A stretch of DNA of 64,000 bases from Squalus acanthias (lineage: Eukaryota): contig CM059431.1 in NCBI GenBank assembly GCA_030390025.1, forward strand, positions 121,832,001 through 121,896,000, written 5' to 3'. Each line of letters starts with the position of its first letter. Position 1 is the first letter of the stretch. A program made the translations under genes and the position numbers. A model generated the notes under the pieces. It had not been told where the DNA came from. It did not search any database and worked only from the letters and a program-made list of their open reading frames with translations. Below, piece after piece: positions 16,975-38,110 of this stretch.

Positions 16975-17096
16975 GTTTGATTTAAACCGTTGAGTTCTTT
17001 GCCTTCTACTTTTGTTTTTCTCCTTCCTGTCTTTTGCTTTTATCCTTATTTCCCTTTCCTCTGTCTCCCTGCTCAGGTTCCCAACCCCCTGCCACT

Positions 17097-18047
17097 TTAG
17101 TTTAAACCCTCCCCAACAGCACTAGCAAACACTCCCCCTAGGACATCGGTCCCGGCCCTGCCCAGGTGCAGACCGTCCCGTTTGTACTGGTCCCACCTCC
17201 CCCAGAACCGGTTCCAATGTCCAAGGAATTTGAATCCCTCCCCCTTGCACCATTCTTCTAGCCACGTATTCATTTGAAATATCCTCCTATTTCTACTCTG
17301 ACTAGCATGTGGCACTGGTAGCAATCCTGAGATTACTACCTTTGAGGTCCTCTTTTTGAATTTACCTCCTAACTCCCTATATTCTGCTTTTAGGACCTCA
17401 TCCCGTTTTTTACCTATATCGTTGATGCCTATGTGCACCACGACAACTGGCTGTTCGCCCTCCCCCTCCAAAGTGTTCTGTAGCCGCTCCGAGACGTCCT
17501 TGACCCTTGCACCAGGGAGGCAACACACCATCCTGGAGTCTCGATTGCGGCCGCAGAAACGCCTATCTATTCCCCTTACAATTGAATCCCCTATCACTAT
17601 AGCTCTTCCACACTTTTTCCTCCCAGCCTGTGCAGCAGAGCCACCCATGGTGCCAGGAAGTTGGCTGCTGCCGCCTTCCCCTGATAAGTCATCCACCCCA
17701 ACAGCATCCAAAGTGGTATATCTGTTTGACAGGGGGATGGCCACAGGGGACCCCTGCACTACCTGCCTGCACCTCTTACTCTGCCTGGTGGTCACCCATT
17801 CACTTCCTGCCTATACACCCTTTACCTGCGGTGTGACCAACTCGCTAAACGTGTTATTCACGACGTTCTCAGCGTCGCGAATGCTCCAATATGCATCCAT
17901 CCGCAGCTCCAGCGCCGCAATGCGGTCCGTCAGTAGCTGCAGCTGGATACATTTCCCACACACATGGTCGTCAGGGACACAGGAAGTGTCCCTGATTTCC
18001 CACATATTGCAGTAGGAGCATATCACGGCGCCGAGATCTGCTGCCAT
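17097..18047 (-). pseudogene. CR1 ORF1 (CxxC zinc finger, leucine zipper, SGNH esterase) with a single premature TAG
   Basis: ORFs 17811-18047 and 17097-17795 are in the same frame, separated by one TAG. Motifs CSYC...CGKC, IGDSIVRG, HIGIND and DGLHL. Confidence 0.87.
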
Positions 18048-21189: not shown

Positions 21190-22371
21190 AAGTCTGATGA
21201 GGCGGTCACAGACCGACCTTGCAGAACACCGATTGAGCAGCTGTCTCCCCTGTCGCTGATGTTCGTCGTCCTGTTCCTCCTGCTCCTCTTCTTACTCTTC
21301 CTCCTAGTCCTCATCCTTGTTCTCCTCCTCCTCCTCCTGAGGTGGTGGAGTTATGCCTGGTGGCAATGGCTGCACCCTCATAATGGCCAAGTTATGCAGC
21401 ATGCAGCAGGCGACGACGAAATGTGACACCCGCTCAGCTGAGTACTGGAGGGCTCCTCCCGAGCGATCAAGACAGCGGAACCATTGCTTGAACACTCCGA
21501 TGGTCTGCTCAATGATGTTCTTGGTGGCAGCATGGCTCTCATTATATGAGTGCTGGCCAGGTGTGCTGGGGTTGCGGAGGGGAGTCATGAACCAGGTGGA
21601 GAGCGGATAGCCCTTGTCTCCCAGCAGCCAGCCGCGAGCTTGATGTGGTGGCTGGAACAAATTTGGCACACTGGTCTGGCGCAGGGTGAAGGCATCGTGG
21701 CTGCTGCAAGGATAGCAGGCATTGACAGTCAGGATTTGCTGCGTGTGGTCACACACCAACTGCACATTAAGTAGGTGGTAGCTTTTGCGGTTACGGAATA
21801 CCTCAGGATTGTTCTGAGGTGCCCGCAAAGTGACGTGGGTGCAGTTAATGGCGCCTTGCACCATTGGAAAGCCCGCTATCCTGGAAAAGCCACATGCACG
21901 CTCGCGCTGCTTCTTTCTGGTCATGGGGATGGAAATGTGGTCCCTTCTCCTTCTGTACAGAGCATCTGTGACCTGGAGGATGGAGCAATGGACAGAAAAC
22001 TGGGAGATGTTGGAGATGTTGCCTGTCACACACTGGAATGATCCGCTGGCATAGAAATTGAGGGCGACGGTGACCTTGACTGCCACTGAGAGAGCCATGG
22101 TGCTCCTGATCTAAGGCTCGAGGTCTGGCTGCAGGAGGTGGCAGAGCTCTGTGATCACGTTCTTGCTGAAGCGGAGCCTTCTAACACACTGGTCCTCAGT
22201 GAAATTCATGCGGGGGAACTGCTGCCAGAATACCCTGGGTGGGTAAGGCCTCCTGTTGAGCGCCCTGTTGGCCCTCCTACCTCTGGCCACATTTTGCACT
22301 CTTTCTCTGTGCCTCAGTTGCCTTCGACATTGACGCTGGAGAGCGAGGTCCAGTGCCAGTACAGCCCCCAT
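21190..22371 (-). pseudogene. Harbinger transposase, disrupted
   Basis: ORFs 22111-22410 and 21304-22098 are in frame across a stop. GAINCTHV, GDKGYP, IEQTIG and CCMLHNL motifs. Confidence 0.9.
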
Positions 22372-24327: not shown

Positions 24328-24614
24328 AACTTTGTTACATTTTTACATTTCTAAGTCTTATTCTTAATCCAGAATATCCACCAAAATCAAATAAAAGTAC
24401 CGTTTGATCCCCGAGACTCTAAGAGTTAAAAACTTACAGAGCCTGCCTCTGAAGCTGAGAATCGCCTGCCCGTTCCAGCGACTTCTGACTTCCTATCTGA
24501 AAATCCCATATCTTATACTCTTTTTGCAGTGGTATCCCCTTTGAAGTTTTCTGCTGATGTAAGCTAATTATCTTTAGTCATTCTTTCTGTTGACTTCTTT
24601 CTATTCTTACCATT

Positions 24615-26280
24615 TGTAGAATTCGCAATATATCGCGATTTTATTAATAAGGAGAAAACACAGAGTTTCGTTCAAACAGCTTTTATTTCAGTAGAATGCT
24701 GGCAGGTTTAAAGTGGACACAAGCAGCCTGTAAAATGGCCGCCGCACCTCGTGACAGAACATTCTAGACTTTTCAACAGGCAGACAAGATGGCGTTCCAA
24801 TAAACATTTGTGCAAGATCGATTAAGATTCAGCACAGTGAAGATAATACACGAGACATTATGGGTTTGCAGTATACACATAGATACTGAAATCGGTCTCC
24901 CAGGTACAAAGGAAAGCCATTGTACCGAGTAATCAAGGGCCCATCCAAAAGACATTAATATGTAAAATCCCAACGACTCTACGATGAGAGAGCCGTTAGC
25001 AGGTAGTTATACAGGACACTTGGAAGCCCCAAACCCCTCCAGGGAGATTACCGACCGATTTAACAATGGGAGAAATATTAACAGGTACTCAGACATTTAC
25101 GAGTAGCCCCGAAACCCATTAAGAACGGAGATCACCCATACAAGACATTTGAGCGCCAAACCCTAAACAAAAGAATGGACATTATAGTTGGGCGGGAAAC
25201 GGAAGATTTTGCACTATAATTGCAGGCTCCAAACTGTCCATTCTTTCTCTTGCTGCTCTTATCATCGTGGCTGCTCCTGTGCTCTTATCCGGTCGATTCG
25301 TAACCTCGTGGCTGCTCCTGTGTACTCGTAGTTGGGCTCGCTCCTGCTTGCCTGTTGCCTCTTCTGAAAAGACTGTTGAACTTTCTGATCCGTTCGGATC
25401 TATCTCGTGTCGCGTAACGAAGACCTATATTGGTAACCGGTATCGGAACCAAAAGGCCCGAGAAGAGATGAGATGAGATGAGATGAGAAGAGAGGAAGAC
25501 CATATCCATCGCCATGGTCAGTAAATCCCGACCGCGCCTGTAGGTCGATTAGCCAAGTTTTCCTCGCCAGGAAGACTTCTTCGAACTTGCAAGGAAACAT
25601 ATCGTATCGACGATATCGACAACTGTGCTCGAAGAGTACCTGTTAAACCAACCAATATAGATCTTCATCACAGCAGACGTTCCAGCCTGCTAGCCGGAGC
25701 AGCAGAAGCAAGTAAACAAGTGGGACCAGGAGATCTCCTGACCGACACGTGGGTGCTGCGGTGAAAAGCATCCGATCAGCTATTCGGAATTTCTCCGAGT
25801 TATCACGAGTGGTGAGCATGAGTCTCGAAATCCTACGAATCTAGTTTAGGATAGATATTGATAGGGGAGGGTTTAAGGATTAAGGATATTTGTAATGTGT
25901 GCCCCTATTTACTTTGTGCCGTTCGTTCCTCGTTTCCCTAAGATCGACTATATAACTGTTTGTAAGATTGTACTGTCATTAATCTGTGCTTATGACATGT
26001 ATTTCATAATCTTAAGTATCATGCAATAAAGATTTTCCATTTCGTACCATTCAAACCAAGTCTACATGAGTTTCATCTCCATTACTGCTCTCGCATCTAA
26101 GTCCAGTGTCTAGAACCGTAAGGGAGAGTGATTCGAACCACTCACAGGTGTGTCTAGTGTTCCCAGACTGGCTGGAGACCAGAACAGGCAACAAGGCCTA
26201 GACCCGCACTGACATACAGGCTGCACAGAGCCGCGTGAATCTCACAGGCTGCGAGACACGCAGGGTCAGAATCCCTTACA
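24615..26280 (+). repeat. 5' LTR (1666 bp)
   Basis: TGTAGAATTC...CCCTTACA, a direct repeat of 35709-37374. TATA-like TATAAT at 25215 and AATAAA at 26025. Confidence 0.97.
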
Positions 26281-26284
26281 GAAA

Positions 26285-28096
26285 ATGGCGACCGCGGCAG
26301 GACACTGGCAGCGAGAGGGTAGTGTGTTAGATTTTGGAATGACTGTACGAAATGTTATGCAGGAAAAGATAGCGGATTATGTGTTTGGAAAGGTTAATCT
26401 AACTAAGAAATGGATAAGTGAATTGTTAGCGGATAAGAGCCCACTAGAGGCAGCTGAAAGGTGGACAGATAGTAAAGAACATAGAAAGACACTTGAGAAA
26501 GCAGTCTGGCTTATGTGTTACAAAAGGCAGGTTCAGATTTCAAACCAGACCATTACAGCGCTAGTAGCTCGAATCAGTCATTTAGAGGGAGAAATGGAGG
26601 AGAAGGTTTCTGGAGGGGAGGTGCTCATTAAGAATTTAAATGAGTTACACCAAGAAAGCCAGGAAGTCTCCAGTCACCTTAAAACAAGGATAGATTATCT
26701 CGAGTGCCAGGTCACTGAGGCAAAATTGAATGAGAGCAGGTTAAAGGAAAGATGTAACCGCCAAGCTGCCCAGATAAGAACTCAAGAAGAGAGCTTGACG
26801 GGGGTTAGGGCGGCATATAAGTTGGCCCTTGAGGATAAGTTTCAGGGAGCCGATCATAGCGCCTGCCAAAGGGAGATAGAGCACCTCAAAAAGGCCGTGA
26901 ACAATGCGAACGGCATGGTGTGCCTTATCAATCCGTCGGCGCACCAGCCGCTAGTAAATGAGAGATTTAGAAAATCCCCACCAAGTAAAGCAGAAGGAGT
27001 AGTAGTCACTGCGCCCTCCGCGCCACCCAGCTATTCAGAAACCTGGGTTAGGGAGGAAGCAATGGAAGAAACAAAAGAGCCCATTGAAAAAGAAGTAGGA
27101 AAGGGATCGTTATATCCAGTAACGGATATTAAAAGGGGCCCAAGCAGAAACGGTGGGGAAGAACCGGGGGATCTCCTCGGACAGCTGGTGTTGCCTCACA
27201 GTTCACATCAGCTGAGAGCTATGATAAATCACGTACGGAAGCTGACCGAGGCAGACGACCCTTCCGTACATTTCAGAGAAGTTGAGCAAGCCGCAGCCAT
27301 TAACGGCTGCGATGATGGGGAAACAGCAAAAATGCTGCTGTTCTCATTAGACAGCTCGGTCCTTCAGTGTCTCTCAGGCGAGAGCAAGAGGGGAACCAAG
27401 AGTTATGAGGAATTAAAGAATGAGGTCCTGGAAGTGTTGGGGGCGAACGACGAAGGTCCGTTTGCTAGAGTGGGACAGACAGTGCAGATGGAGGGAGAAC
27501 CCCCGAAGGTTTTTGCCGACAGGCTGTGGCCAGTATATGAGCGCAGCTGTCTAGGTGCGCCCGAGCGCGAAGATGTGGAAGGTTTAGCTTTAACTCATTG
27601 GCTTAGGTGCATAATAGCCAACAGTTTACCAGCCGTCAGAGAGCAGGCAAAAGCATGGTTTGATCCCAATGACCCCAACATTACGGAAGAGTCGGTCTTG
27701 AATCGACTCACGTTAGGTTATCGCAATATAAGGGGTATGGCAACACGTCCCCTTAAGGGAAGAGTACATGAGGTACGACCCGCAGCCCCGTATCAAAGAG
27801 AGTGGCATCAGGAGGGTAATCGCGCCCCACAGGCAGGTAATGCTTGTTACGGGTGTGGGAAGACAGGGCACTGGCGCAAGCATTGCAGGAACCCTTGGAA
27901 GGATTCCAAGGATAAAAATCCCGCGGTCCGAGCCCAGGCGCCTGTCCCGGCTAAGGAAGCCAAGGCACCCACCCCTCCTGACGACCTCGAAGCAGTGTTA
28001 GGAGCCATGCGCAAGCTGGTCTTGAATGCGCGTGGACAGGTGGCGGTCGCAACCGGCCCCGTAGGTGCCGCAGGACCGTCTAATAGTACCCCATGA
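26285..28096 (+). CDS. gag: Gag polyprotein (coiled coil, late domains, capsid-like region, CCHC nucleocapsid); true start may be the ATG at 26340
   Basis: 603-aa ORF immediately after the LTR. CYGCGKTGHWRKHC zinc knuckle. QMEGEPPKVFADRL resembles a major homology region. Confidence 0.9.
   Translation: MATAAGHWQREGSVLDFGMTVRNVMQEKIADYVFGKVNLTKKWISELLADKSPLEAAERWTDSKEHRKTLEKAVWLMCYKRQVQISNQTITALVARISHLEGEMEEKVSGGEVLIKNLNELHQESQEVSSHLKTRIDYLECQVTEAKLNESRLKERCNRQAAQIRTQEESLTGVRAAYKLALEDKFQGADHSACQREIEHLKKAVNNANGMVCLINPSAHQPLVNERFRKSPPSKAEGVVVTAPSAPPSYSETWVREEAMEETKEPIEKEVGKGSLYPVTDIKRGPSRNGGEEPGDLLGQLVLPHSSHQLRAMINHVRKLTEADDPSVHFREVEQAAAINGCDDGETAKMLLFSLDSSVLQCLSGESKRGTKSYEELKNEVLEVLGANDEGPFARVGQTVQMEGEPPKVFADRLWPVYERSCLGAPEREDVEGLALTHWLRCIIANSLPAVREQAKAWFDPNDPNITEESVLNRLTLGYRNIRGMATRPLKGRVHEVRPAAPYQREWHQEGNRAPQAGNACYGCGKTGHWRKHCRNPWKDSKDKNPAVRAQAPVPAKEAKAPTPPDDLEAVLGAMRKLVLNARGQVAVATGPVGAAGPSNSTP
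26286..26303 (+). promoter_or_regulatory. Primer-binding site (tRNA-Ser-like, imperfect)
   Basis: TGGCGACCGCGGCAGGAC begins 5 nt after the LTR. It resembles the complement of tRNA-Ser 3' ends (TGGCG...GGCAGGA). Confidence 0.65.
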
Positions 28097-31000
28097 CTAG
28101 AACCGGCGCAGCCCGTCTACCTGTGTCCGCTTAGCTATGACGCGTGGAGGCGACCTGTGGTGGAGATGGAGGTAGAGAAACAGAAGGGTAGTTATTTGTT
28201 GGACACGGGAGCTTCTTGCACCATAATCCATACAGATAACCCTTTCGACTCGCCGCTATCTACCAAGGTCCCATTCACGTTAGCAGGGTTCACAGGAAAA
28301 GAACAGGCTGGCACGTTTTCCCTTCCGCTATCCATTCGTTTAGGAACACTTCGCCTTAAGTGGAAGTGTATACTGATGGCATGGCAAAAGGGGGGTGGAA
28401 GAGGTATCCTCGGGTCCGATCTCCTAGCGGGACACGGGATCCTCGTGGACCTCAGAAATCACTGTCTCTGGGGGGCTAAAGGTGAAAAAGGCGAGGTAAT
28501 AGTGATTCCGGGGGAGGAAGAAACAGGGGTCCTGTGTACCGTACAGCCATCCGGAGGCTACGACCTCAGGCTTATGGTCGCAGATGTCCCAACGGACATG
28601 CAAACGTACGTGTCAGATAATATGCACGCGTTTGCAACCCACAAGCACGATTGTGGGAGAGTGGTCGGGTTTGAGGTCAGCGTAGATGGGGACCCCATGA
28701 CCCGACCCCAAAAGCAGTATAACTTCCCCAAAGAAGCAGAACCCGATATGGAGACAGCAATGTCCTCCTTGGTGCAGCAGGGCGTGTTGAGGCCAATAGC
28801 CACACACGTAAACTCCCCATTATGGCCGGTTAGGAAGCCGGATAATTCGTGGAGGGCCACGGTGGACTACAGAGTCCTTAACAGTAACATTCCCGCCTGC
28901 GCGCCCACAGTAGCAGCAGTTGCTGACCTAATAGGGAGCATCCCAGCGTCCGCGACCACGTTCACGGTGCTGGATATCTCGAACGGTTTTTGGTCCATCC
29001 CGCTGCGGCGAGAGGACCAGTACAAGTTTGCCTTTACTTTCAAAGGACAACAGTACACATGGAACTGTCTGCCACAGGGTTTCCACAATAGCCCCAGTAT
29101 TTTTCATCAGTGTATGGCAGGAAGTTTAAAGGAGTTTAGTCAGCCCAATCAGATAGTACAGTATGTGGATGATTTGCTCCTATTTACGGACTCAAGGGAG
29201 GAGCACGGACCACTACTGGACGAGTTATTGGAGCTGTTAGCGAGAAAGGGTTTTAAAATAAACCCTAAGAAAGCACGTATCGGTCAGCGGGAAGTAAAGT
29301 TCCTGGGACTGACCATACGCGCTGGGGAAAGAGCCATAGACAAAGCAAGGAGGGAGTCGGTGCAAGAATTACCGATTCCCAACAACGTAAGGGGTGTGAG
29401 GTCCTTCTTGGGACTGACCGGTTACTGCAGGGATTTTATCGAAGATTATGCGGCCACAGCGGCGCCGCTCCTCCGACTCCTCCATAAGGGGGTGGAGTGG
29501 CTTTGGGACGAGGGCTGCCAAGCAGCCTTCGAGAAGTTAAAAAGGGATCTGCAGACCGCGCCAGCCTTAGGGGCCATAGATGGGGGGAAGGAGTTTTTCC
29601 TGGAGGTCGCTGCCAGCGGAGACAGCTTAAGCGCCGTGCTGCTCCAAGAGCGTCACGGCAAGCTGAGGCCGGTTGTCTATTCATCCAGGGTATTAACGGA
29701 TGTGGAGAGAAGTTTCTCCAATTGCGAAAGGCACCTTTTAGCCACGCATTGGGCTGTGAAAAGATCAGCGATCTTCACAGGGCTCTCTCCCATCACTCTC
29801 CTCACACATCACACACCAACTAAGATGCTTCTGGATGGGAGGATTAAAGACGGGACCGTAAGCAGCGCACGCATTGCGCGTTGGACCCTTCTTCTCTCCC
29901 AGTTGGATCTTAGAGTAAAAGGTCTTTGCGAGCCAAGGCTTGCGGCCAATCTGGTATACCCCGGTACAGCCCACCGGTGTTCGGTGGAAGGGGTGTGGGA
30001 CGTCAACATAGGTTTACGGGCCGGGATACATCCCACTGGGCGCGAGATTTATGTTGATGGGTCTAGCACAGTATCTGCTGGCGAGCGACTCACAGGGTGT
30101 GGAGTTTATGACCCTGCGGCAGACCTTGCCCTGGCGATCAAGCTCCCCAGCACTATGAGCGCGCAGCAAGCCGAGCTGTCTGCCGTGGTGTACGTTGTGA
30201 CCCACCCAGACATTTTCCCAACCCCATATACGATTTGCTCGGACAGTATGTTCACCTGCAATTCGTGTACGGAATACCTGGCCATTTGGTCCCGCCGCGG
30301 ATACACCTCCGCGGACGGGCGACCTTTGACGGTGAAGCCCTTGCTGGAAAAGATCTTAGCAGCAGCGGTGGGGGAGGAAGGAGAGATTTTCATCCATAAG
30401 GTGAAAGCTCACTCCTCCACAGAGCCCCGTGGGGAGGGCAACCGGCAGGCGGATGCGCTAGCCAGGGAGGGTGCCCGCGACGGCACTTTCTGGAACCCCT
30501 ATAGGACCGGACCCATAGCAGCGGTCCGAGGCGGGGACGGGATTCCCGGGAACACCAGGGTAGCATTGCCCCTAGACCTCAAGACCGTCCAAACCCAGGA
30601 TCCCGCCCTAAAAGCAGTCCTAAAAACGATTGCTGAAGGGAGGCAGGTAGAAGGTCCGTACAGTACGGCAACCCTCTCAGTTAAGGAAGGCATGCTGTTC
30701 CGCGAGGAGCAGTGGGTTGTGCCACAGCAGCACAGGAGGGAATTCCTCCAGTTGGCTCACGAGGGACCAGGGGCAGGGCACCCCGGGCCCGAGGTTACCT
30801 GGCAACGGGTAGAGCAAGCGGGATGGTGGCCAGGGCTCAGGGAACAAGTCCGCGAGTTCTGTGCAAACTGTCTTGTGTGCGCTGCAAACAACCCAGACCC
30901 CCAGAAAAGGAAGGTGCCCATGGGACACGTAAGAAGGGTAGAGGGACCATGGCAGTCGATACAGATCGACTATATAGGACCCCTGCCCACCACCCAGGGA

Positions 31001-32593
31001 GGTTATAAGTACTGCCTCGTCCTGGTGGATGTGTTTTCCAAGTGGGTGGAAGCCTTCCCTTGTCGAACAGCTACGGCACTGGGTACAGCAAAAATCTTGG
31101 TCCGGGAAGTGTTCTCGCGGTGGGGACTCCCCCGTTTTGTGGAGTCAGACCAAGGGAGTCATTTCACCGGCCAGGTGATGCAGAACACCCTCATGCTTTT
31201 GGGCATTGAAGGGAAGTGGCACGTAGCACACAATCCCCAGTCATCCGGGATTGTTGAACGTATGAACCGGACCCTGAAGGAGAAATTGAGGAAAGAGACT
31301 AGGAACTCGCCCCAAAAATGGGCGGAAGTTCTGCCTTTAGTCCTCATGGGGGTCCGGGCCAGTCAGTCAAAAAGTACGGGGTACTCCCCGCACGAGGTAA
31401 TGACTGGGAGGCTCATGCGAACCCCCACCCATGTGCTAGCACCGGTGCTCACTGAGGGTCAGCTCCAAGAGATAAGCAGGGACAAGTTCGCCCAGACTCT
31501 CTTGGAGCGCCTGAAGCAAGTTTATGAGCAGGCGGCTGGGAACATGGGAAGGCAGCATCAGGGCAATCGCTTGTTGCTGGAACCCCGCAAAACGCGGGAG
31601 TGGGAAGTAGGAGACCAGGTCATGGTCAGAAACTATGCCAGAGTAGGGAGTCTGGAACCACTGTATATGGGACCCTACAACATTGTAGACAAGGCGAGTC
31701 CCATGGTTTACGCCGTAAAAGTACCTCGGCGCACTAAGTGGTTCCACATAAACCAATGCAAACTGTACCAGCCAGGTGCGCAGGGGAAAACTACAGGGGT
31801 AAATCCCGCCAATGGGAAAGCACAGCCCCAGGTAGGACCACAAGGCACACAGGCAGGCATAGCAGCTTGCATCAGGGGAAGGGACATCCCGGACGATCAT
31901 GCAGCGTTTTTCTGGAATTGGGGGTTAGATGAGGAAGAATTCAGGGTACCCGGGTCAGATGAGGATAGTGCAGATGAGGATAGTGATGACGACGGGTGGT
32001 TTCGGAGGAACGGTCCCTTTTACGATATGGAGGGGACGGGGGCTGCAGGTAGAGATCCACACAGGGTGGATACACGAGCTGCAGGTCCCGAAGACAGGAG
32101 GGAGGAGCTAGAGGAGGCAGGGCCAGCCGCTATGGGAGCACAGAGAGTACCGGTGTGGCTCCCAGAGATGTGGCCGCCCGCTTTGAACGTCCAGTCCTCA
32201 GGGGAGGCAGAGATCACGAGTGAAGGGCCGCCTGCTGGGCCGAGCAGGGCGGAGCCACGAACTGCCAGCCCCGAGGTTAGGGAGGCGGAGTCAGCGGAGG
32301 CGGAGCCAGCGACTGTGATGGAACCCCAGGTCATCCCGATGGAAGTCTCGGAACCCGGTCCGTCCGTCACGGAAACCCCGCCCATAGCAACTCCCCGTAG
32401 GTCAAGTAGAGAACCCCAGCCCAGGAGGATGTGGTCATGTCCCCAGACTGCCCCAAGGCGAAAATTTAAGGTTAAGATAACCCAGATACAGACCGGCCAC
32501 ATCGCAGCAGTAACAGGCTGCGGCAGATCAGAGGGAAGGGTCAGTGCCCTCCCACCGTCGGGAAGAGCTCGCAGCAGCCTTCTCAGAATTTAA
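28097..32593 (+). CDS. pol: Pol: protease, RT, tether, RNase H, integrase and C-terminal extension; in frame with gag
   Basis: LLDTGAS; LPQGF and YVDD; IYVDGSS..AQQAEL..SDS..GNRQAD; H-H-C-C, QIDYIGP/SDQG/VERMN and GPY module. No stop from 28097 to the end. Confidence 0.95.
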   Translation, partial: LEPAQPVYLCPLSYDAWRRPVVEMEVEKQKGSYLLDTGASCTIIHTDNPFDSPLSTKVPFTLAGFTGKEQAGTFSLPLSIRLGTLRLKWKCILMAWQKGGGRGILGSDLLAGHGILVDLRNHCLWGAKGEKGEVIVIPGEEETGVLCTVQPSGGYDLRLMVADVPTDMQTYVSDNMHAFATHKHDCGRVVGFEVSVDGDPMTRPQKQYNFPKEAEPDMETAMSSLVQQGVLRPIATHVNSPLWPVRKPDNSWRATVDYRVLNSNIPACAPTVAAVADLIGSIPASATTFTVLDISNGFWSIPLRREDQYKFAFTFKGQQYTWNCLPQGFHNSPSIFHQCMAGSLKEFSQPNQIVQYVDDLLLFTDSREEHGPLLDELLELLARKGFKINPKKARIGQREVKFLGLTIRAGERAIDKARRESVQELPIPNNVRGVRSFLGLTGYCRDFIEDYAATAAPLLRLLHKGVEWLWDEGCQAAFEKLKRDLQTAPALGAIDGGKEFFLEVAASGDSLSAVLLQERHGKLRPVVYSSRVLTDVERSFSNCERHLLATHWAVKRSAIFTGLSPITLLTHHTPTKMLLDGRIKDGTVSSARIARWTLLLSQLDLRVKGLCEPRLAANLVYPGTAHRCSVEGVWDVNIGLRAGIHPTGREIYVDGSSTVSAGERLTGCGVYDPAADLALAIKLPSTMSAQQAELSAVVYVVTHPDIFPTPYTICSDSMFTCNSCTEYLAIWSRRGYTSADGRPLTVKPLLEKILAAAVGEEGEIFIHKVKAHSSTEPRGEGNRQADALAREGARDGTFWNPYRTGPIAAVRGGDGIPGNTRVALPLDLKTVQTQDPALKAVLKTIAEGRQVEGPYSTATLSVKEGMLFREEQWVVPQQHRREFLQLAHEGPGAGHPGPEVTWQRVEQAGWWPGLREQVREFCANCLVCAANNPDPQKRKVPMGHVRRVEGPWQSIQIDYIGPLPTTQGGYKYCLVLVDVFSKWVEAFPCRTATALGTAKILVREVFSRWGLPRFVESDQGSHFTGQVMQNTLMLLGIEGKWHVAHNPQSSGIVERMNRTLKEKLRKETRNSPQKWAEVLPLVLMGVRASQSKSTGYSPHEVMTGRLMRTPTHVLAPVLTEGQLQEISRDKFAQTLLERLKQVYEQAAGNMGRQHQGNRLLLEPRKTREWEVGDQVMVRNYARVGSLEPLYMGPYNIVDKASPMVYAVKVPRRTKWFHINQCKLYQPGAQGKTTGVNPANGKAQPQVGPQGTQAGIAACIRGRDIPDDHAAFFWNWGLDEEEFRVPGSDEDSADEDSDDDGWFRRNGPFYDMEGTGAAGRDPHRVDTRAAGPEDRREELEEAGPAAMGAQRVPVWLPEMWPPALNVQSSGEAEITSEGPPAGPSRAEPRTASPEVREAESAEAEPATVMEPQVIPMEVSEPGPSVTETPPIATPRRSSREPQPRRMWSCPQTAPRRKFKVKITQIQTGHIAAVTGCGRSEGRVSALPPSGRARSSLLRI

Positions 32594-32905
32594 AGGGGCC
32601 GCCCTGAGAACGGGCGGCACTGTAAAGTTATAGTTCTAAGTTTTAAGTTTATCGTTCAAGGTTAAGTTTTAAGTTTATAGTTCAAGGTTAAGTTTATAGT
32701 TTTATTAAGGTTAAGTTTGTAGTGTTTTTAACAGAAAACGATAAAATGATGGGAGCTTTAAAGATAGGTTTAGTGAAAAGTTTATACAGCAAACGTGGAA
32801 GTTTACGTGAGGCGAGGTCAGGGGACCCGCTCACCCTTCACAGAAGCCAGAGACTCTTGCGAGGCTGGCTACCTCATTCTATCTGATCACAGGAACCAAG
32901 GAAGG

Positions 32906-35257
32906 ATGGAACGAATTCTAGTATTGCTCGTGGCAATCGGATGTGGATTGGCCTATCGAGGCCGCACCAAGGATGTCGTGGTGTTTGGATGTTCCGGGGA
33001 CACGGCCCCCATCGCGGTGGATGGGACCGGAAGACGGGAGGCAGAGGAGACCAGCACCTATTTCCACAAGGGAAGGTGGCCAGGATGGCTGGGAACGAAC
33101 TCAACGGAGTATTCCAGCACATCGGGGTTTGCCTACAAAGAGACTTCTTTACTGTGCCCCAAAGTAAGGATCATCGCACCCAGGATCAGCGTCACCGTCG
33201 GCAAACGGATTTGTTTGACTTGTAGTGGGAAGGTCCCATTGAGCCGATGGTGGTGGCTGCGAAAGCTGAGCAAAACTATGAGGAACTCTTCGGTCGAGTG
33301 GGAACGACTGGGTAATAATACCCATCGGACAATTACGGGGACAGACGGACAAGTGAAAGTCTGTTGGGACAAATGGTGGGAACCGGATGAGGGAATTTAT
33401 GTATGTATGTGGGGGTCAAAGTACGTTTGCCCCAAAGGCATCTCCATATTTTTTATTAATCAATGGCAGGATAACGGACAGGGGATGAGGTGGGATGCGA
33501 GCACCAGGGGGTGCGGAGCCCCATTCTCCCCGATCCCAGTAAATGCCACTGAGCTCATTACGCGCCCACGCAAAGCCCCGCCCACGATTCCGGTGGTTCT
33601 AGCTGAGGAAGAAGGGTGCCCTAAAACTAGTAAGGGACCCGGGAATGGTTTGGTACTGGTCCCCACAGACCAGATACTATTTCAGGGGGTACATTACGCG
33701 GTGGCCTCGGTGATTTTAAATCTCACCGAGGTGCGGTTACCAGAGTGGTGCCCCAAAAAGACGGAACAGTTGTACCAGGTCCTGTTGACCAAGATGTTCA
33801 GACAATTTTACGAATTCGATTTCGCGGAAATTGATAAAACAAGTTTGTACACCGCACCACAGGAAGTTTTGGATCAAGTAGGGAGGCAAAGAAGGGGTTT
33901 GGTGAACGATGCGTTCACTGCTTTTAACACAGGTACATCTGTGGTCAACGCTCTAGACAGTGTGGAGCTGCAGACCCAGATTAATGGTTTAAAGACACAA
34001 TTAAAGGACATTCTAACAGATGAGAATAAAGTGGTAGGGTCGGGTCTACACGAGGACCAAGCCATGACCCTCCATTTAAAGGAAATTATAGCAGAGTTGG
34101 AGAAACATGCAAAGACGGTAAATGCCCTGATTAGGGAAGATCGGAATGCATCCGATCAAGCTGCGCAGAACGAGGTGTGCGTGCTTTACGGGGCGTGGTT
34201 ACTGGGCGAGGGCCGCAGTAATTTGGAGGATTTAAAACAAGGTTTGGTTCCGTCCTGGATAAGTAACAAACACCTGCGGGAGCTCCACCCTTTTCAGAAC
34301 GCATTAAGTCCATGCCAGCTCAGGCTAGCTTCAGAAGCATACCCAGTCCCCGTGGACTGCGGACGTTCAAACCATACTATTATGGGAATAGTATTACGTA
34401 TGCCGGTTTTGGGCGACACAGCAAAGCCCGCCCCGGTGTATCGGGTAGAGAACATTGGTGTCATTCAGGGGGGAGCCCACATTCGTTATGCAGCGGTTCC
34501 ACCTTACGTCATCCGCTGGGAGCAAACGATGACAGGTACAGATCTCTCTGGTTGTCGTGGCAGGGGAGCACACATAATACTGTGCCCCCAGCACTTGAAT
34601 GCCTTTTTAACACCACAGTGCGGGTTCAGAACGACTGGCGCCAAGTCCATGAATTGCACCATGGAGGCAATGGCACAAGATCATGTGCCTCCGCAGGTAG
34701 CATACATCGGGGGTGGAACATATTGTGTTACCACTGCAGCGCAACACTACCAGCATGGAAACCGTAGCCGGTGTCCGGTGAGTGACAGCAGTTTCTGTTT
34801 TAAACCCAGGGCGGAAGTTCAAGTAGCACAACAGCGAATTATCCCAATCCCTGAACCATCCACTGTTCATCTCACAGTAAAAGAGAATTTCACCGACTTG
34901 CAGCGATTCGTCGCGCATTTTGGATACCTCATTCCCCCTCTCCCTGAACACCTCACCAAACTTCTAAAAGCCGTCGCGGTGTCACAGAAACATTTTTACA
35001 CATTAGAGCAGAAAACTGTCGAAATAGGAACAGACATTCTGGATATAGTAGTTCCACCGTGGTGGAATCTGTTCACTAATATTGAAGTACCTTCATGGAT
35101 CAGAATAGCCTCCCACATTTTAGTCGTATGCCAAGTTTTCATTGTAGTGTACCTATTGGTTGTACATTGTAAAAGAGACAAACGCCTCACCAAGCATGAA
35201 AACACGGGAGAGTGGCGAGAACGTTACGTGCGCGTGCACGATGAGAGCACCGTGTAA
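32906..35257 (+). CDS. env: Envelope glycoprotein (783 aa): signal peptide, Ig-like domain, RQRR cleavage site, class I fusion subunit, TM anchor
   Basis: MERILVLLVAIGCGLA signal, several NxS/T sequons, RQRR|GLVNDAFTAF, heptad repeat, Cys-rich region and TM ILVVCQVFIVVYLLVV. Splice acceptor CACAG ends at 32892. Confidence 0.88.
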   Translation: MERILVLLVAIGCGLAYRGRTKDVVVFGCSGDTAPIAVDGTGRREAEETSTYFHKGRWPGWLGTNSTEYSSTSGFAYKETSLLCPKVRIIAPRISVTVGKRICLTCSGKVPLSRWWWLRKLSKTMRNSSVEWERLGNNTHRTITGTDGQVKVCWDKWWEPDEGIYVCMWGSKYVCPKGISIFFINQWQDNGQGMRWDASTRGCGAPFSPIPVNATELITRPRKAPPTIPVVLAEEEGCPKTSKGPGNGLVLVPTDQILFQGVHYAVASVILNLTEVRLPEWCPKKTEQLYQVLLTKMFRQFYEFDFAEIDKTSLYTAPQEVLDQVGRQRRGLVNDAFTAFNTGTSVVNALDSVELQTQINGLKTQLKDILTDENKVVGSGLHEDQAMTLHLKEIIAELEKHAKTVNALIREDRNASDQAAQNEVCVLYGAWLLGEGRSNLEDLKQGLVPSWISNKHLRELHPFQNALSPCQLRLASEAYPVPVDCGRSNHTIMGIVLRMPVLGDTAKPAPVYRVENIGVIQGGAHIRYAAVPPYVIRWEQTMTGTDLSGCRGRGAHIILCPQHLNAFLTPQCGFRTTGAKSMNCTMEAMAQDHVPPQVAYIGGGTYCVTTAAQHYQHGNRSRCPVSDSSFCFKPRAEVQVAQQRIIPIPEPSTVHLTVKENFTDLQRFVAHFGYLIPPLPEHLTKLLKAVAVSQKHFYTLEQKTVEIGTDILDIVVPPWWNLFTNIEVPSWIRIASHILVVCQVFIVVYLLVVHCKRDKRLTKHENTGEWRERYVRVHDESTV

Positions 35258-35696
35258 TCGGAAAATGGCGTCACTCCCGCTCGCCACGTGCGCCGCGGAA
35301 GCCTGTACTCATATAAGATTTTCAGAGATTGTAAATACGTTGGGAACTCGACATGTTTTAAGAGTTGGTGTTGATTATTTTATGGTGATGGTGTTACAGT
35401 TAGAATTGATTGTTTGGTTTTGGGTTCTGTTTCTCCTTTCCCTGAATAAAAGATGAATATACAGGTGATACGAGAGGCATCGGCCTGGTTACGCCGGGAA
35501 GGAAAACAAGTGGTGTAAGTTTAAGGGCAAATAATGCCTACGGTGATATAAAATGTAATTTCTTGGGAAATGAGGACGACACAGAGACCCTAGCTAGGTT
35601 AAAGTTATGGGATTAATTTGCTGGATTCGGGGAAAAATCGAGATAATATTGCTCACCACTATGATTTTTGATACGATAAGCGGAGTTATTCGCATC

Positions 35697-35708
35697 AACA
35701 GGAGGGAC
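35697..35708 (+). promoter_or_regulatory. Polypurine tract
   Basis: AACAGGAGGGAC lies directly before the TG of the 3' LTR. Confidence 0.7.
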
Positions 35709-37374
35709 TGTAGAATTCGCAATATATCGCGATTTTATTAATAAGGAGAAAACACAGAGTTTCGTTCAAACAGCTTTTATTTCAGTAGAATGCTGGCAGG
35801 TTTAAAGTGGACACAAGCAGCCTGTAAAATGGCCGCCGCACCTCGTGACAGAACATTCTAGACTTTTCAACAGGCAGACAAGATGGCGTTCCAATAAACA
35901 TTTGTGCAAGATCGATTAAGATTCAGCACAGTGAAGATAATACACGAGACATTATGGGTTTGCAGTATACACATAGATACTGAAATCGGTCTCCCAGGTA
36001 CAAAGGAAAGCCATTGTACCGAGTAATCAAGGGCCCATCCAAAAGACATTAATATGTAAAATCCCAACGACTCTACGATGAGAGAGCCGTTAGCAGGTAG
36101 TTATACAGGACACTTGGAAGCCCCAAACCCCTCCAGGGAGATTACCGACCGATTTAACAATGGGAGAAATATTAACAGGTACTCAGACATTTACGAGTAG
36201 CCCCGAAACCCATTAAGAACGGAGATCACCCATACAAGACATTTGAGCGCCAAACCCTAAACAAAAGAATGGACATTATAGTTGGGCGGGAAACGGAAGA
36301 TTTTGCACTATAATTGCAGGCTCCAAACCGTCCATTCTTTCTCTTGCTGCTCTTATCATCGTGGCTGCTCCTGTGCTCTTATCCGGTCGATTCGTAACCT
36401 CGTGGCTGCTCCTGTGTACTCGTAGTTGGGCTCGCTCCTGCTTGCCTGTTGCCTCTTCTGAAAAGACTGTTGAACTTTCTGATCCGTTCGGATCTATCTC
36501 GTGTCGCGTAACGAAGACCTATATTGGTAACCGGTATCGGAACCAAAAGGCCCGAGAAGAGATGAGATGAGATGAGATGAGAAGAGAGGAAGACCATATC
36601 CATCGCCACGGTCAGTAAATCCCGACCGCGCCTGTAGGTCGATTAGCCAAGTTTTCCTCGCCAGGAAGACTTCTTCGAACTTGCAAGGAAACATATCGTA
36701 TCGACGATATCGACAACTGTGCTCGAAGAGTACCTGTTAAACCAACCAATATAGATCTTCATCACAGCAGACGTTCCAGCCTGCTAGCCGGAGCAGCAGA
36801 AGCAAGTAAACAAGTGGGACCAGGAGATCTCCTGACCGACACGTGGGTGCTGCGGTGAAAAACATCCGATCAGCTATTCGGAATTTCTTCGAGTTATCAC
36901 GAGTGGTGAGCATGAGTCTCGAAATCCTACGAATCTAGTTTAGGATAGATATTGATAGGGGAGGGTTTAAGGATTAAGGATATTTGTAATGTGTGCCCCT
37001 ATTTACTTTGTGCCGTTCGTTCCTCGTTTCCCTAAGATCGACTATATAACTGTTTGTAAGATTGTACTGTCATTAATCTGTGCTTATGACATGTATTTCA
37101 TAATCTTAAGTATCATGCAATAAAGATTTTCCATTTCGTACCATTCAAACCAAGTCTACATGAGTTTCATCTCCATTACTGCTCTCGCATCTAAGTCCAG
37201 TGTCTAGAACCGTAAGGGAGAGTGATTCGAACCACTCACAGGTGTGTCTAGTGTTCCCAGACTGGCTGGAGACCAGAACAGGCAACAAGGCCTAGACCCG
37301 CACTGACATACAGGCTGCACAGAGCCGCGTGAATCTCACAGGCTGCGAGACACGCAGGGTCAGAATCCCTTACA
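35709..37374 (+). repeat. 3' LTR (1666 bp)
   Basis: Direct repeat of the 5' LTR, with four transitions seen by eye. Followed by CATT. Confidence 0.97.
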
Positions 37375-38110
37375 CATTAGTTCAGCTGCTAACTCTCAGA
37401 ATCCTGTCTGCTGTATAGGTGTTTAATAACTTATCATATAAAATGTTATTACAGATTTATCTCTTTGATGCCATTCTTATGAAGGTCTTCAATTCAATTC
37501 TTAATATCCCCTTAACTGGTTATAAGCAGACGTTATGTCTACTAACTGTTCCATTTTCAATGCAAACACAATGTGATTGCTTGGTGTCATCTTCAAAGTG
37601 TTCTGTAGGTATTATATTTACAATATGTAAATCAAAACCACTTCAACCAGGGTGTTCCATGCATTTCTTAGCTACTTCAATTGGTTGTATTTATAATTGT
37701 GTTTCCCTTTTCATTTGATGTTACTTTTACAAAGGCACATGGTTTTTTAATGTTCTGTGTTTCTGTTCGAAGTGTTATTTTTAGCACTTTAAACTGGGTA
37801 TAGCATTGTGTTGGTTCCAAACTGCAGACTCCTTGGAAGAAAGCCTTTGCTTCTTCGATAGGACCATTGTCTCAGTGTCAATAACCATTTCCCATTTCAA
37901 AAGCTTGTATGGTGTCTACAGCTTTGTGTCAACAAGCTCATCTTATCTCAGAAGCCTGTATTTACAGCTTTGTGTCATTGAGGCTTTTAGATTTTTAAAC
38001 CCAGTTTGTCATATTTTAATGTCAGAATTCTGTTCATAGGATGGTGTATTTTTCTGAAATATGGCTATTCCTTTACAACGGGAGGCGCAAAGGAGCCCAA
38101 TATTTAGCCC

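Follow-up and report, generated by a model that had tools for sequence, protein, structure and literature searches.

We describe a complete endogenous retrovirus in a 64,000-nt stretch of the Squalus acanthias genome (assembly GCA_030390025.1, contig CM059431.1, positions 121,832,001-121,896,000, forward strand; hereafter the window, in whose coordinates all positions are given) and, in particular, its envelope protein, Env, which is encoded at 32906-35257. The joint reading that we put forward, and that we hold to be moderately probable, is that of a young provirus whose Env combines a fusogen of the type of the paramyxovirus and pneumovirus fusion (F) proteins with an extension of about 220 residues, centred on an old immunoglobulin (Ig)-like domain of I-set/V-like kind which would be the putative attachment module. 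Our analysis directly supports the anatomy of the provirus, the architecture of the protein and the F-like fold of its core, as well as the motif for cleavage, the signature of an Ig domain with its conservation, and the purifying selection on the gene. The same DNA had previously received an annotation made from its letters alone (the first-pass annotation), and we say below how its proposals fared.

Results

The fusogen core and the layout of Env

From residue 238 on, Env was confirmed, at the level of predicted structure, as a class I fusogen of the paramyxovirus/pneumovirus F type. The full-length AlphaFold model, built from an alignment of Env with 48 of its 51 relatives (P0015, P0042 and P0045 were left out), reached a confidence score (pLDDT) of about 90 for residues 240-310 and 420-650 and was poor for residues 1-233 (25-60). 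When this model was compared with the PDB by Foldseek, F of human parainfluenza virus 3 (hPIV3; 1ztm) was found at E 4.6e-11 with a probability of 1.00, 244 chains matched at E <= 0.001, and the rows listed were F proteins of paramyxoviruses and pneumoviruses (hPIV3, respiratory syncytial virus (RSV), Nipah virus and others) with sequence identities of 9-15%. Matches in BFVD were F-type glycoproteins of mononegaviruses, baculovirus F, paramyxovirus F0 and two Envs of walleye epsilonretroviruses. At the sequence level, Pfam PF00523 gave no match to the window Env at E <= 1, phmmer of Env against the PDB sequences returned two chance-level matches and no Ig or F chain, and Baculo_F was matched by one of 49 family members (E 0.0011). 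Because no F protein is matched by sequence, Env is classed here as F-like on account of its fold and is not assigned to PF00523.

The env open reading frame (ORF) encodes 783 aa from its first ATG on the forward strand, to which all the following segments belong, and its frame is open from 32795. A putative signal peptide (32906-32956), with a hydrophobic core at residues 4-16, can be read from the sequence. After it comes a pre-region of residues 18-84 (32957-33157), in which C29, C84 and a GRWPGWLG.NST motif are conserved in the alignment of relatives and for which no family match was obtained. The Ig-like domain occupies residues 85-190 (33158-33475), delimited by the strands of the AlphaFold models, a sub-threshold Ig_3 match, hhalign, language-model neighbours and fold searches. 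The segment behind it (residues 191-220, 33476-33565) holds the conserved C203 and the glycosylation site N213 and is less conserved than any other part of the extension. A Pro-rich linker, PRKAPPTIP (residues 221-229, 33566-33616), reaches the conserved CP with which the F-like core begins, and relatives are Pro-rich there too. In total, the N-terminal 240 residues of Env contain cysteines at positions 13, 29, 84, 103, 106, 153, 167, 175, 203 and 238 and N-glycosylation sequons at 65, 127, 137 and 213.

The F2-like segment (residues 238-330, 33617-33895) terminates in a furin-type site, RQRR (327-330). The F1-like subunit (residues 331-783, 33896-35254), as described by DSSP of the full-length model, Foldseek and hydropathy, comprises a moderately hydrophobic fusion peptide (331-350), a long HRA-type helix (383-444), a beta-rich head (477-645), an HRB-type helix (681-704), a membrane anchor (734-753, with the hydropathy maximum at residue 734) and a short tail. 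Cleavage at RQRR330|G331, fusion peptide, HRA, HRB and anchor together give the architecture of F-type class I proteins. Distant Envs align only from residues ~221-238 on, at a conserved CP...GL, F proteins likewise match no earlier than residues ~221-238, and for this reason we consider residues 18-237 as an extension placed ahead of an F2-sized segment. In agreement with the first-pass annotation, the PRKAPPTIP stretch lies between the Ig-like domain and the fusogen, whose F2-like part begins at residue 238, and paramyxovirus F proteins are not built in this way, as they are devoid of the extension of residues 18-237.

An Ig signature in the N-terminal extension

Residues 85-190 probably form an Ig-like sandwich with a predicted C106-C167 core disulfide packed on W117. 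An Ig V/I-set domain had been proposed at 33160-33450, a span that corresponds to Env residues 85-182, and all the motif strings quoted for it are present in the translation of 32906-35257: ISVTVGKRICLTC at residues 94-106, WWWLRK at 115-120 and DEGIYVC at 161-167. The register of the signature is G98-x-x-I-x-L-x-C106, W117 (+11) and D161-x-G163-x-Y165-x-C167, with the hydrophobic residues V152, W154 and W157 at the usual E-strand positions. The separation of about 60 aa claimed for the two cysteines also held, C106 and C167 being 61 residues apart. The features by which Ig membership is recognised, namely the B-strand Cys, the C-strand Trp and the F-strand D-x-G-x-Y-x-C, are thus found in canonical register and spacing. 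The motif residues are kept in relatives down to 50% identity with the exception of P0026, probably a decayed copy, where F replaces C106. The B strand contains a further cysteine, C103, which is invariant across the seven aligned relatives. Since, in the canonical reading, C153 on strand E adjoins C103 and both are conserved, a second, B-E disulfide between them is plausible.

Profile comparisons located the same region, with a match moderately above chance. Pfam Ig_3, whose cut-off is 30 bits, aligns residues 88-167 to profile positions 5-74 of 78, with E 0.45 (11.5 bits) for the whole Env, E 0.093 (13.7 bits) for the 223-aa N-terminus and only E 2.5 for a 137-aa cut-out. The best score in the family belongs to P0010, a relative with 50% identity (E 0.0085, 17 bits), and Ig_3 was matched by 5 of the 14 family members scanned at E <= 1, no other family being matched by more than one. 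The Pfam search that the first-pass annotation suggested therefore placed Ig_3 where expected, at scores below the cut-off. We also compared, by hhalign, a profile of eight family sequences (residues 85-190) with 30 Ig_3 exons of the same genome. The alignment, which keeps to the canonical register, spans 72 columns and scores 19.7 (P 0.0038); among 200 column-shuffled profiles (mean 11.3, sd 2.6) one reached 19.7. Every other control gave a lower score and a shorter alignment: the reversed profile (12.4, P 0.12, 19 columns), Env residues 18-84 (9.7, P 0.26, 9 columns) and 168-240 (8.8, P 0.38, 6 columns), three other Env segments (7.2-14.8, P 0.026-0.67, 1-38 columns), all against host Ig, and the domain family against 30 host FN3 exons (14.1, P 0.056, 13 columns). 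Among the ESM Atlas neighbours of residues 80-200, the ten best named clusters are all Ig families, with scores of 0.88-0.90.

An AlphaFold model of residues 18-240, computed from 14 sequences (the domain and 13 relatives), is all-beta with a mean pLDDT of 41, and its seven strands follow the A-B-C-D-E-F-G order: A/A' 87-97, B 102-107, C 115-119 (with W117), D 141-146, E 149-154 (with C153), F 164-168 (with C167) and G 181-185. The best Foldseek match of this model was embigin (E 0.018), and all 50 rows listed were of the Ig superfamily by title. In a VIA search of 48,161 cluster representatives, 48 of the 50 rows listed were Ig domains (Z 4.6-5.9, rmsd ~3 A, 80-96 residues), including LAG3 (Z 5.9), myotilin Ig1 and titin (5.5), embigin, MDGA1, NCAM2 and obscurin; the non-Ig rows were a titin FnIII entry and a phosphatase. 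Structure prediction followed by Foldseek, another check suggested beforehand, hence returned the seven strands and an Ig-only list of rows, but no confident sandwich at this pLDDT and E value.

Several of these results weigh against the assignment. Every Pfam Ig match lies below 30 bits, the hhalign probability against host Ig exons is only 8.7%, and no Ig chain was recovered in PDB sequence and profile searches (phmmer of Env, and a seven-sequence N-terminal profile that gave one chance-level match). About a third of shuffled proteins likewise obtain ten ESM Atlas neighbours of the same clan. AlphaFold confidence is poor at the N-terminus, both in the full model (pLDDT 25-60) and in the domain model (mean 41), with which Foldseek returned no match at E <= 0.001. 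All VIA Z values are below 8, a range compatible with a merely common arrangement, and fold matches of a low-confidence model may be meaningless. Additionally, MAFFT placed the F-strand Cys of the frog Envs at C153, whereas Pfam and hhalign put C167 on strand F, and so an alternative strand assignment exists. The Ig evidence is concordant across methods, yet no single line of it is significant or decisive. What stands of the proposed V/I-set domain is therefore a signature in register and a likely Ig-like nature, while the profile matches remained sub-threshold and the model had a mean pLDDT of 41.

Relatives of Env and age of the domain

A phmmer search of 1.84 billion representatives identified 51 proteins related to Env at E <= 0.001. 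The 21 of them whose names were looked up include proteins from the sharks Mustelus, Chiloscyllium, Pristiophorus, Rhincodon, Heterodontus and Scyliorhinus, from the skate Rhinoraja (the closest, with 76% identity), from the frogs Pelodytes, Mantella and Xenopus, and from the coelacanth; no genuine host Ig-superfamily gene was among these 21. Four shark gene models, named ZFP2-like, Niban 1-like, cadherin-related 5-like and fbxo15 isoform (P0008, P0007, P0011 and P0039), consist of pieces of the Env family joined to host exons and are probably gene-prediction chimeras with fragments of endogenous retroviruses.

The extension is shared with the skate and shark relatives at 50-76% identity and is also found in an older, partly decayed lineage of the same genome. 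A homologue search by Env region 60-235 recovered P0002 alone, and one by a 176-aa fragment recovered nothing. Distant full-length shark and frog Envs have Ig-like domains of their own directly before the CP...GL anchor. P0013, from a bamboo shark, bears the UniRef name 'Ig-like domain-containing protein' and gave hhalign P 0.014 against host Ig over 68 columns. P0034 matched Pfam V-set at E 0.045 and host Ig by hhalign with a probability of 82% (P 1e-5), and the frog proteins P0019 and P0048 show the G..V.V.C / W / G.V.C pattern as partial matches only. From its position and kind, common descent of the Ig-like domain in this Env and in the distant ones is likely; on the other side, hhalign found no significant match when the window domain family was set against the N-terminal domains of P0013, P0019, P0034 and P0048 (P 0.005-0.2, short alignments), and so does not establish homology.

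The first-pass annotation suggested looking for the domain in related Envs, and it is present in skate and shark relatives, with Ig-like counterparts at the same position in distant shark and frog proteins. These results argue for the Ig-like domain being an old part of an Env family of sharks, skates, frogs and coelacanth, and not a recent capture from the host. Because the domain is so shared, any host capture would be ancient and untraceable here. The first-pass annotation had interpreted it as a captured host module, which is not supported as a recent event: the 21 names contain no host Ig-superfamily gene, and skates and sharks share the domain at 50-76%.

Copy number and constraint on env

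The Env family occurs at very high copy number in the genome and in two lineages, one young, with intact and near-identical env, and one older. At least 57 other genomic copies encode an Env that is ~100% identical and free of stops (57 scored of 12915 candidates). The older lineage is 54-60% identical to P0010 and has many stops or truncations (150 scored of 5830 candidates).

We compared the window Env with four older-lineage copies whose frames are open in the compared part (L013, L017, L019 and L020). The rate of replacement changes (dN) was 0.43-0.47 for residues 18-84, 0.28-0.30 for the Ig-like residues 85-190 and 0.60-0.70 for residues 191-237, and identity by region agrees that the Ig-like part is the most conserved of the extension. 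The synonymous rate (dS) was saturated (>1.3 or undefined), so that the dN/dS of ~0.1-0.2 for residues 18-84 and 85-190 is rough only. Among the near-identical copies, 11 differ from the window env by 9-25 nt each, and E459A, seen in the window copy alone, is the one change among them that is not synonymous; the Ig part shows four synonymous changes and no replacement. These 11 are the best protein matches among the 57 scored of 12915 candidates, a choice biased to few amino-acid changes. However, such a bias cannot give zero replacements in ~20 differences per copy under neutrality, and env, with its Ig-like part, was therefore under purifying selection while the family spread. This in turn points to env-dependent reinfection.

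When synonymous differences between the window env and the 11 copies (L002-L012) are counted per codon, the N-terminal extension (0.003-0.007) has roughly one tenth of the frequency of the F1-like part (0.036). The differences are grouped as shared blocks at residues 457-517 and 685-724, which looks like sublineage or recombination structure. Elsewhere in the genome, pairs of intact env lie ~7.7 kb apart on the same strand, a spacing shorter than the 11.09-kb offset of the two long terminal repeats (LTRs) of the window provirus (examples are G000:C3311:2258451/2266145; C352:58900/66596; C9:138170442/138178199; C7:117257578/117265335; C16:35644597/35652343). This suggests tandem arrays of a shorter, perhaps internally deleted, variant.

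The provirus and its surroundings

The ORF list, Pfam and a repeat search show a complete provirus at 24615-37374, with gag, pro-pol and env ORFs between paired LTRs, all on the forward strand. The 5' LTR (24615-26280) has 1666 bp with TG...CA ends and is repeated directly, at an offset of 11094, by the 3' LTR (35709-37374). The sequence CATT at 24611-24614 and 37375-37378 is a 4-bp target duplication, and paired TG...CA LTRs, target-site duplication and gag-pol-env order are together the features of an endogenous retrovirus. The LTRs differ by 4 mismatches in 1666 bp. Applying the mammalian neutral rate of 2.2e-9 per site per year used in PMC7947760, a rate that may not be that of this host, the 0.24% LTR divergence gives an insertion age of about half a million years. 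The provirus is, then, a young and recent integration.

The gag ORF (26285-28096) encodes 603 aa, with a weak match to a CCHC zinc knuckle at residues 520-535 and weak hits of coiled-coil type. Straight after the 5' LTR, at 26281-26305, GAAAA is followed by a TGG-initiated 18-mer which resembles a primer-binding site; as the first ATG of gag (26285) overlaps this stretch, the true start is uncertain and may be further downstream. No tRNA gene was found in a tRNA scan of the window. The pro-pol ORF (28157-32593) encodes protease, reverse transcriptase (RT), tether/RNase H and integrase according to Pfam and PDB sequence matches. Pfam gave RVT_1 (E 4.9e-36), RT_RNaseH_2 (2e-21, residues 450-538), RNase_H (2e-19, residues 630-773), Integrase_H2C2 (1.7e-17) and rve (5.5e-15), and the PDB sequence matches were Ty3 (6.5e-72), gamma-type RT (~1e-69), foamy virus PR-RT (1e-63) and the integrase of PFV (5.6e-34). 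Where pol ends, shortly ahead of env, contigs of three public runs show a variant of 32507-32544, with a 38-bp duplication and one extra C, that belongs to other copies. The one true RNA run gave 0 reads, and two runs whose RNA nature is a guess extend over the entire provirus, env deeper than pol and with no splice joint; we draw no conclusion on expression from these runs.

No ORF of >=100 aa exists between env and the 3' LTR. The coding content is thus gag, pro-pol and env, and the provirus encodes no surface protein besides Env, just as the first-pass annotation assumed when it spoke of a fusogen that lacks a separate attachment protein. We likewise found no SMC-like gene of the sort reported in some lokiretroviruses: gag has only the coiled-coil-type weak hits, and no extra ORF of that length follows env.

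The remainder of the window is rich in repeats, with a LINE-type element, a Harbinger-type transposase and RT fragments. A non-LTR retrotransposon on the reverse strand (14113-17795) contains a 952-aa ORF with an endonuclease (Exo_endo_phos, 1.4e-12) and an RT (6.3e-34) and, ahead of it, a further ORF that carries a GDSL-type esterase domain (5.6e-13); a Harbinger/PIF-type DDE transposase ORF lies at 21304-22098 on the reverse strand (DDE_Tnp_4, 3.2e-32).

Discussion

We propose that Env would lose its signal peptide and then be cleaved by a furin-type protease at RQRR330|G331. The extension would stay on the F2-like half, in the position of a surface subunit (SU), tethered to the head of the fusogen by the Pro-rich linker. 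The Ig-like domain, glycosylated at N127 and N137, would be the attachment module that binds the receptor, doing in cis the job that paramyxoviruses give to a separate HN, H or G protein, and receptor engagement would free the F1-like half to refold and fuse the membranes. What we infer here is the fold in its details, the disulfide pairing, and the part of the domain in receptor binding and triggering; the receptor-binding role, which the first-pass annotation offered next to an immune-mimic one, is plausible. Two considerations speak against this scheme: receptor binding is inference through and through, and the Ig part has changed less than the segments on either side of it, whereas receptor-binding surfaces often vary.

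In this sense, the greater conservation of the Ig part (dN 0.28-0.30 vs 0.43-0.70), unlike many receptor-binding domains, fits slightly better with a domain that does not bind the receptor and acts as a glycan-bearing shield, as a clamp of the prefusion trimer or as an immune-modulating mimic, contact with the receptor being left to the F-like head or to residues 18-84 or 191-220. The N-glycosylation sites that the domain bears around its C-D loop, N127 and N137, point in the same direction, and the F protein of pneumoviruses is able to engage cells with no second protein for binding. We regard such a role as unlikely, though worth keeping in view, since nothing favours other parts of Env as the binder, no likeness to a specific host immune receptor was found in the search that gave the 51 related proteins, and Env must both attach and fuse, for which a tethered and exposed Ig domain has attachment as its simplest role. 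The sub-threshold profile matches, the hhalign probability of 8.7%, the empty PDB sequence searches and a model with pLDDT 41, no Foldseek match at E <= 0.001 and VIA Z < 8 would, in turn, be explained if residues 85-190 were a beta-rich domain of some other fold and its C...W...DxGxYxC a coincidence. Such a chance resemblance seems to us quite unlikely: independent methods all give the Ig clan in the same register, lower scores come from shuffles, reversal, flanks, FN3 and other Env segments, relatives at 50% identity retain the residues of the motif, and the positionally equivalent domains of P0013 and P0034 are themselves recognised as Ig-like.

It is also conceivable that a host Ig-superfamily exon was recently captured and grafted onto the fusogen. 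Viruses capture host Ig domains, and Ig_3 exons abound in this genome (all 150 matches scored lay above the family cut-off). We consider this explanation very improbable. Host Ig exons resemble the domain at an hhalign P of 0.0038 at best, and no host Ig-superfamily protein appeared among the 51 Env-related proteins at E <= 0.001, for 21 of which the name was looked up. The domain is present in a skate, in several shark relatives and in the older decayed lineage of the same genome, and Ig-like domains sit at the same place in distant frog and shark Envs. We accordingly keep the reading of an old Ig-like domain that would serve an F-type fusogen as its attachment module.

F-type retroviral envelopes are known. 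To our knowledge, how such an Env finds its receptor without a partner attachment protein is not understood, and the tethered Ig-like domain before the F2-like segment is a concrete candidate for this function. If true, Env would be a one-protein solution to a task that paramyxoviruses split between F and HN/H/G, and an unusual case of a domain with a canonical Ig signature built into a class I fusogen. More tentatively, and with chances that we would put somewhat below even, a whole clade of F-type retroviral Envs in sharks, skates, frogs and coelacanth may have an ancestral, canonical Ig domain as its cis attachment module, and the virus that carries it may have replicated by env-dependent reinfection until very recently, with thousands of copies of which the best differ almost only synonymously; its host would then belong to a vertebrate class for which the published screen reported no lokiretroviruses. 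Indeed, an env that was apparently under purifying selection through a very large recent amplification offers a natural intact sequence for functional study.

Regarding known systems, the F proteins of paramyxoviruses and pneumoviruses (hPIV3 1ztm, RSV, Nipah virus) resemble the window Env in the fold of residues ~238-650, in the F2/F1-type cleavage with the fusion peptide at the new N-terminus, in HRA and HRB and in the C-terminal anchor. They differ in having only 9-15% identity with it, no match at the sequence level and no N-terminal extension of ~220 residues. Paramyxovirus F relies on a separate attachment protein, and the Ig-like domain II that F proteins have of their own sits in F1 and is a different element from the domain described here. 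Cellular Ig domains of the I-set, Ig_3 and V-set kinds (titin, myotilin, NCAM2, LAG3, embigin) share with the window domain the G-x-x-(I/V)-x-L-x-C, W and D-x-G-x-Y-x-C in register, the 61-residue Cys spacing and the predicted seven-strand all-beta arrangement, and they are its best structural neighbours. In contrast with them, the window domain has the extra conserved C103, C153 and C175, a B-C loop one residue shorter than in host Ig exons and profile scores below the cut-off, and it stands within a viral fusogen.

Among retroviruses, the receptor-binding domain of murine leukemia virus (MLV) has an Ig-like beta-sandwich core and a Pro-rich junction to the rest of Env. For this reason, the statement of the first-pass annotation that classical retroviral SU is not built in an Ig-like way was too strong. 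The gammaretroviral SU is thus similar to the window Env in its N-terminal beta-sandwich module and Pro-rich joint, and differs in being placed on a gamma-type, not an F-type, fusion subunit and in not having the canonical Ig signature; none of our searches of the window Env detected similarity to the MLV domain. The predicted Env structures of two epsilonretroviruses, walleye epidermal hyperplasia virus 1 and walleye dermal sarcoma virus, match the full-length model in BFVD (E 9.9e-11 and 3.3e-8), although these proteins are much longer (1317 and 1159 aa), and because of these matches F-type Envs may not be confined to lokiretroviruses. Also in BFVD, the glycoprotein of a fish filo-like virus, two ranid/abalone herpesvirus ORFs and the walleye Envs resemble the F-type model, with E values from 1e-10 to 1e-5; as far as predicted structures go, viruses of fish and amphibians may possess F-type fusogens more often than the names imply.

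The closest comparison is with lokiretroviruses, whose Env, as described by Wang & Han 2020 (PMC7947760), resembles F of Mononegavirales in its signal peptide, R-X-K/R-R type cleavage site, fusion peptide, coiled coil and membrane anchor. The window Env is F-like by fold, as in the definition of lokiretroviruses given in PMC7947760 and PMC9040795. The window Pol has the dual RNase H (tether and RH), which canonical retroviruses also have (PMC9040795), and relatives of the window Env exist in Xenopus and Latimeria, both marked as lokiretrovirus-positive hosts in PMC7947760. However, the Env model in that text consists of a signal peptide, a fusion peptide, a coiled coil and a membrane anchor only, with no Ig-like domain. 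The words 'immunoglobulin' and 'Ig-like' are absent from the main text of PMC7947760 and from PMC9040795. In the library searched, our literature search returned no report naming both lokiretroviruses and immunoglobulin, and a 2026 preprint on env-carrying retrotransposons likewise has no mention of it; the only prior flag of an Ig-like domain is the automatic UniRef name of one distant homologue, P0013. The PDB matches of Pol (Ty3, then gamma-type RT, then foamy virus) leave it undecided whether the window element is a lokiretrovirus. The host range differs as well, since the closest relatives of the window Env are those of sharks and skates, whereas none of six cartilaginous-fish genomes was positive in the lokiretrovirus screen reported in PMC7947760. 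Three species that were negative in that screen, Scyliorhinus torazame, Chiloscyllium punctatum and Rhincodon typus, hold relatives of the window Env, and the element described here extends the retroviruses with F-type Envs to cartilaginous fishes.

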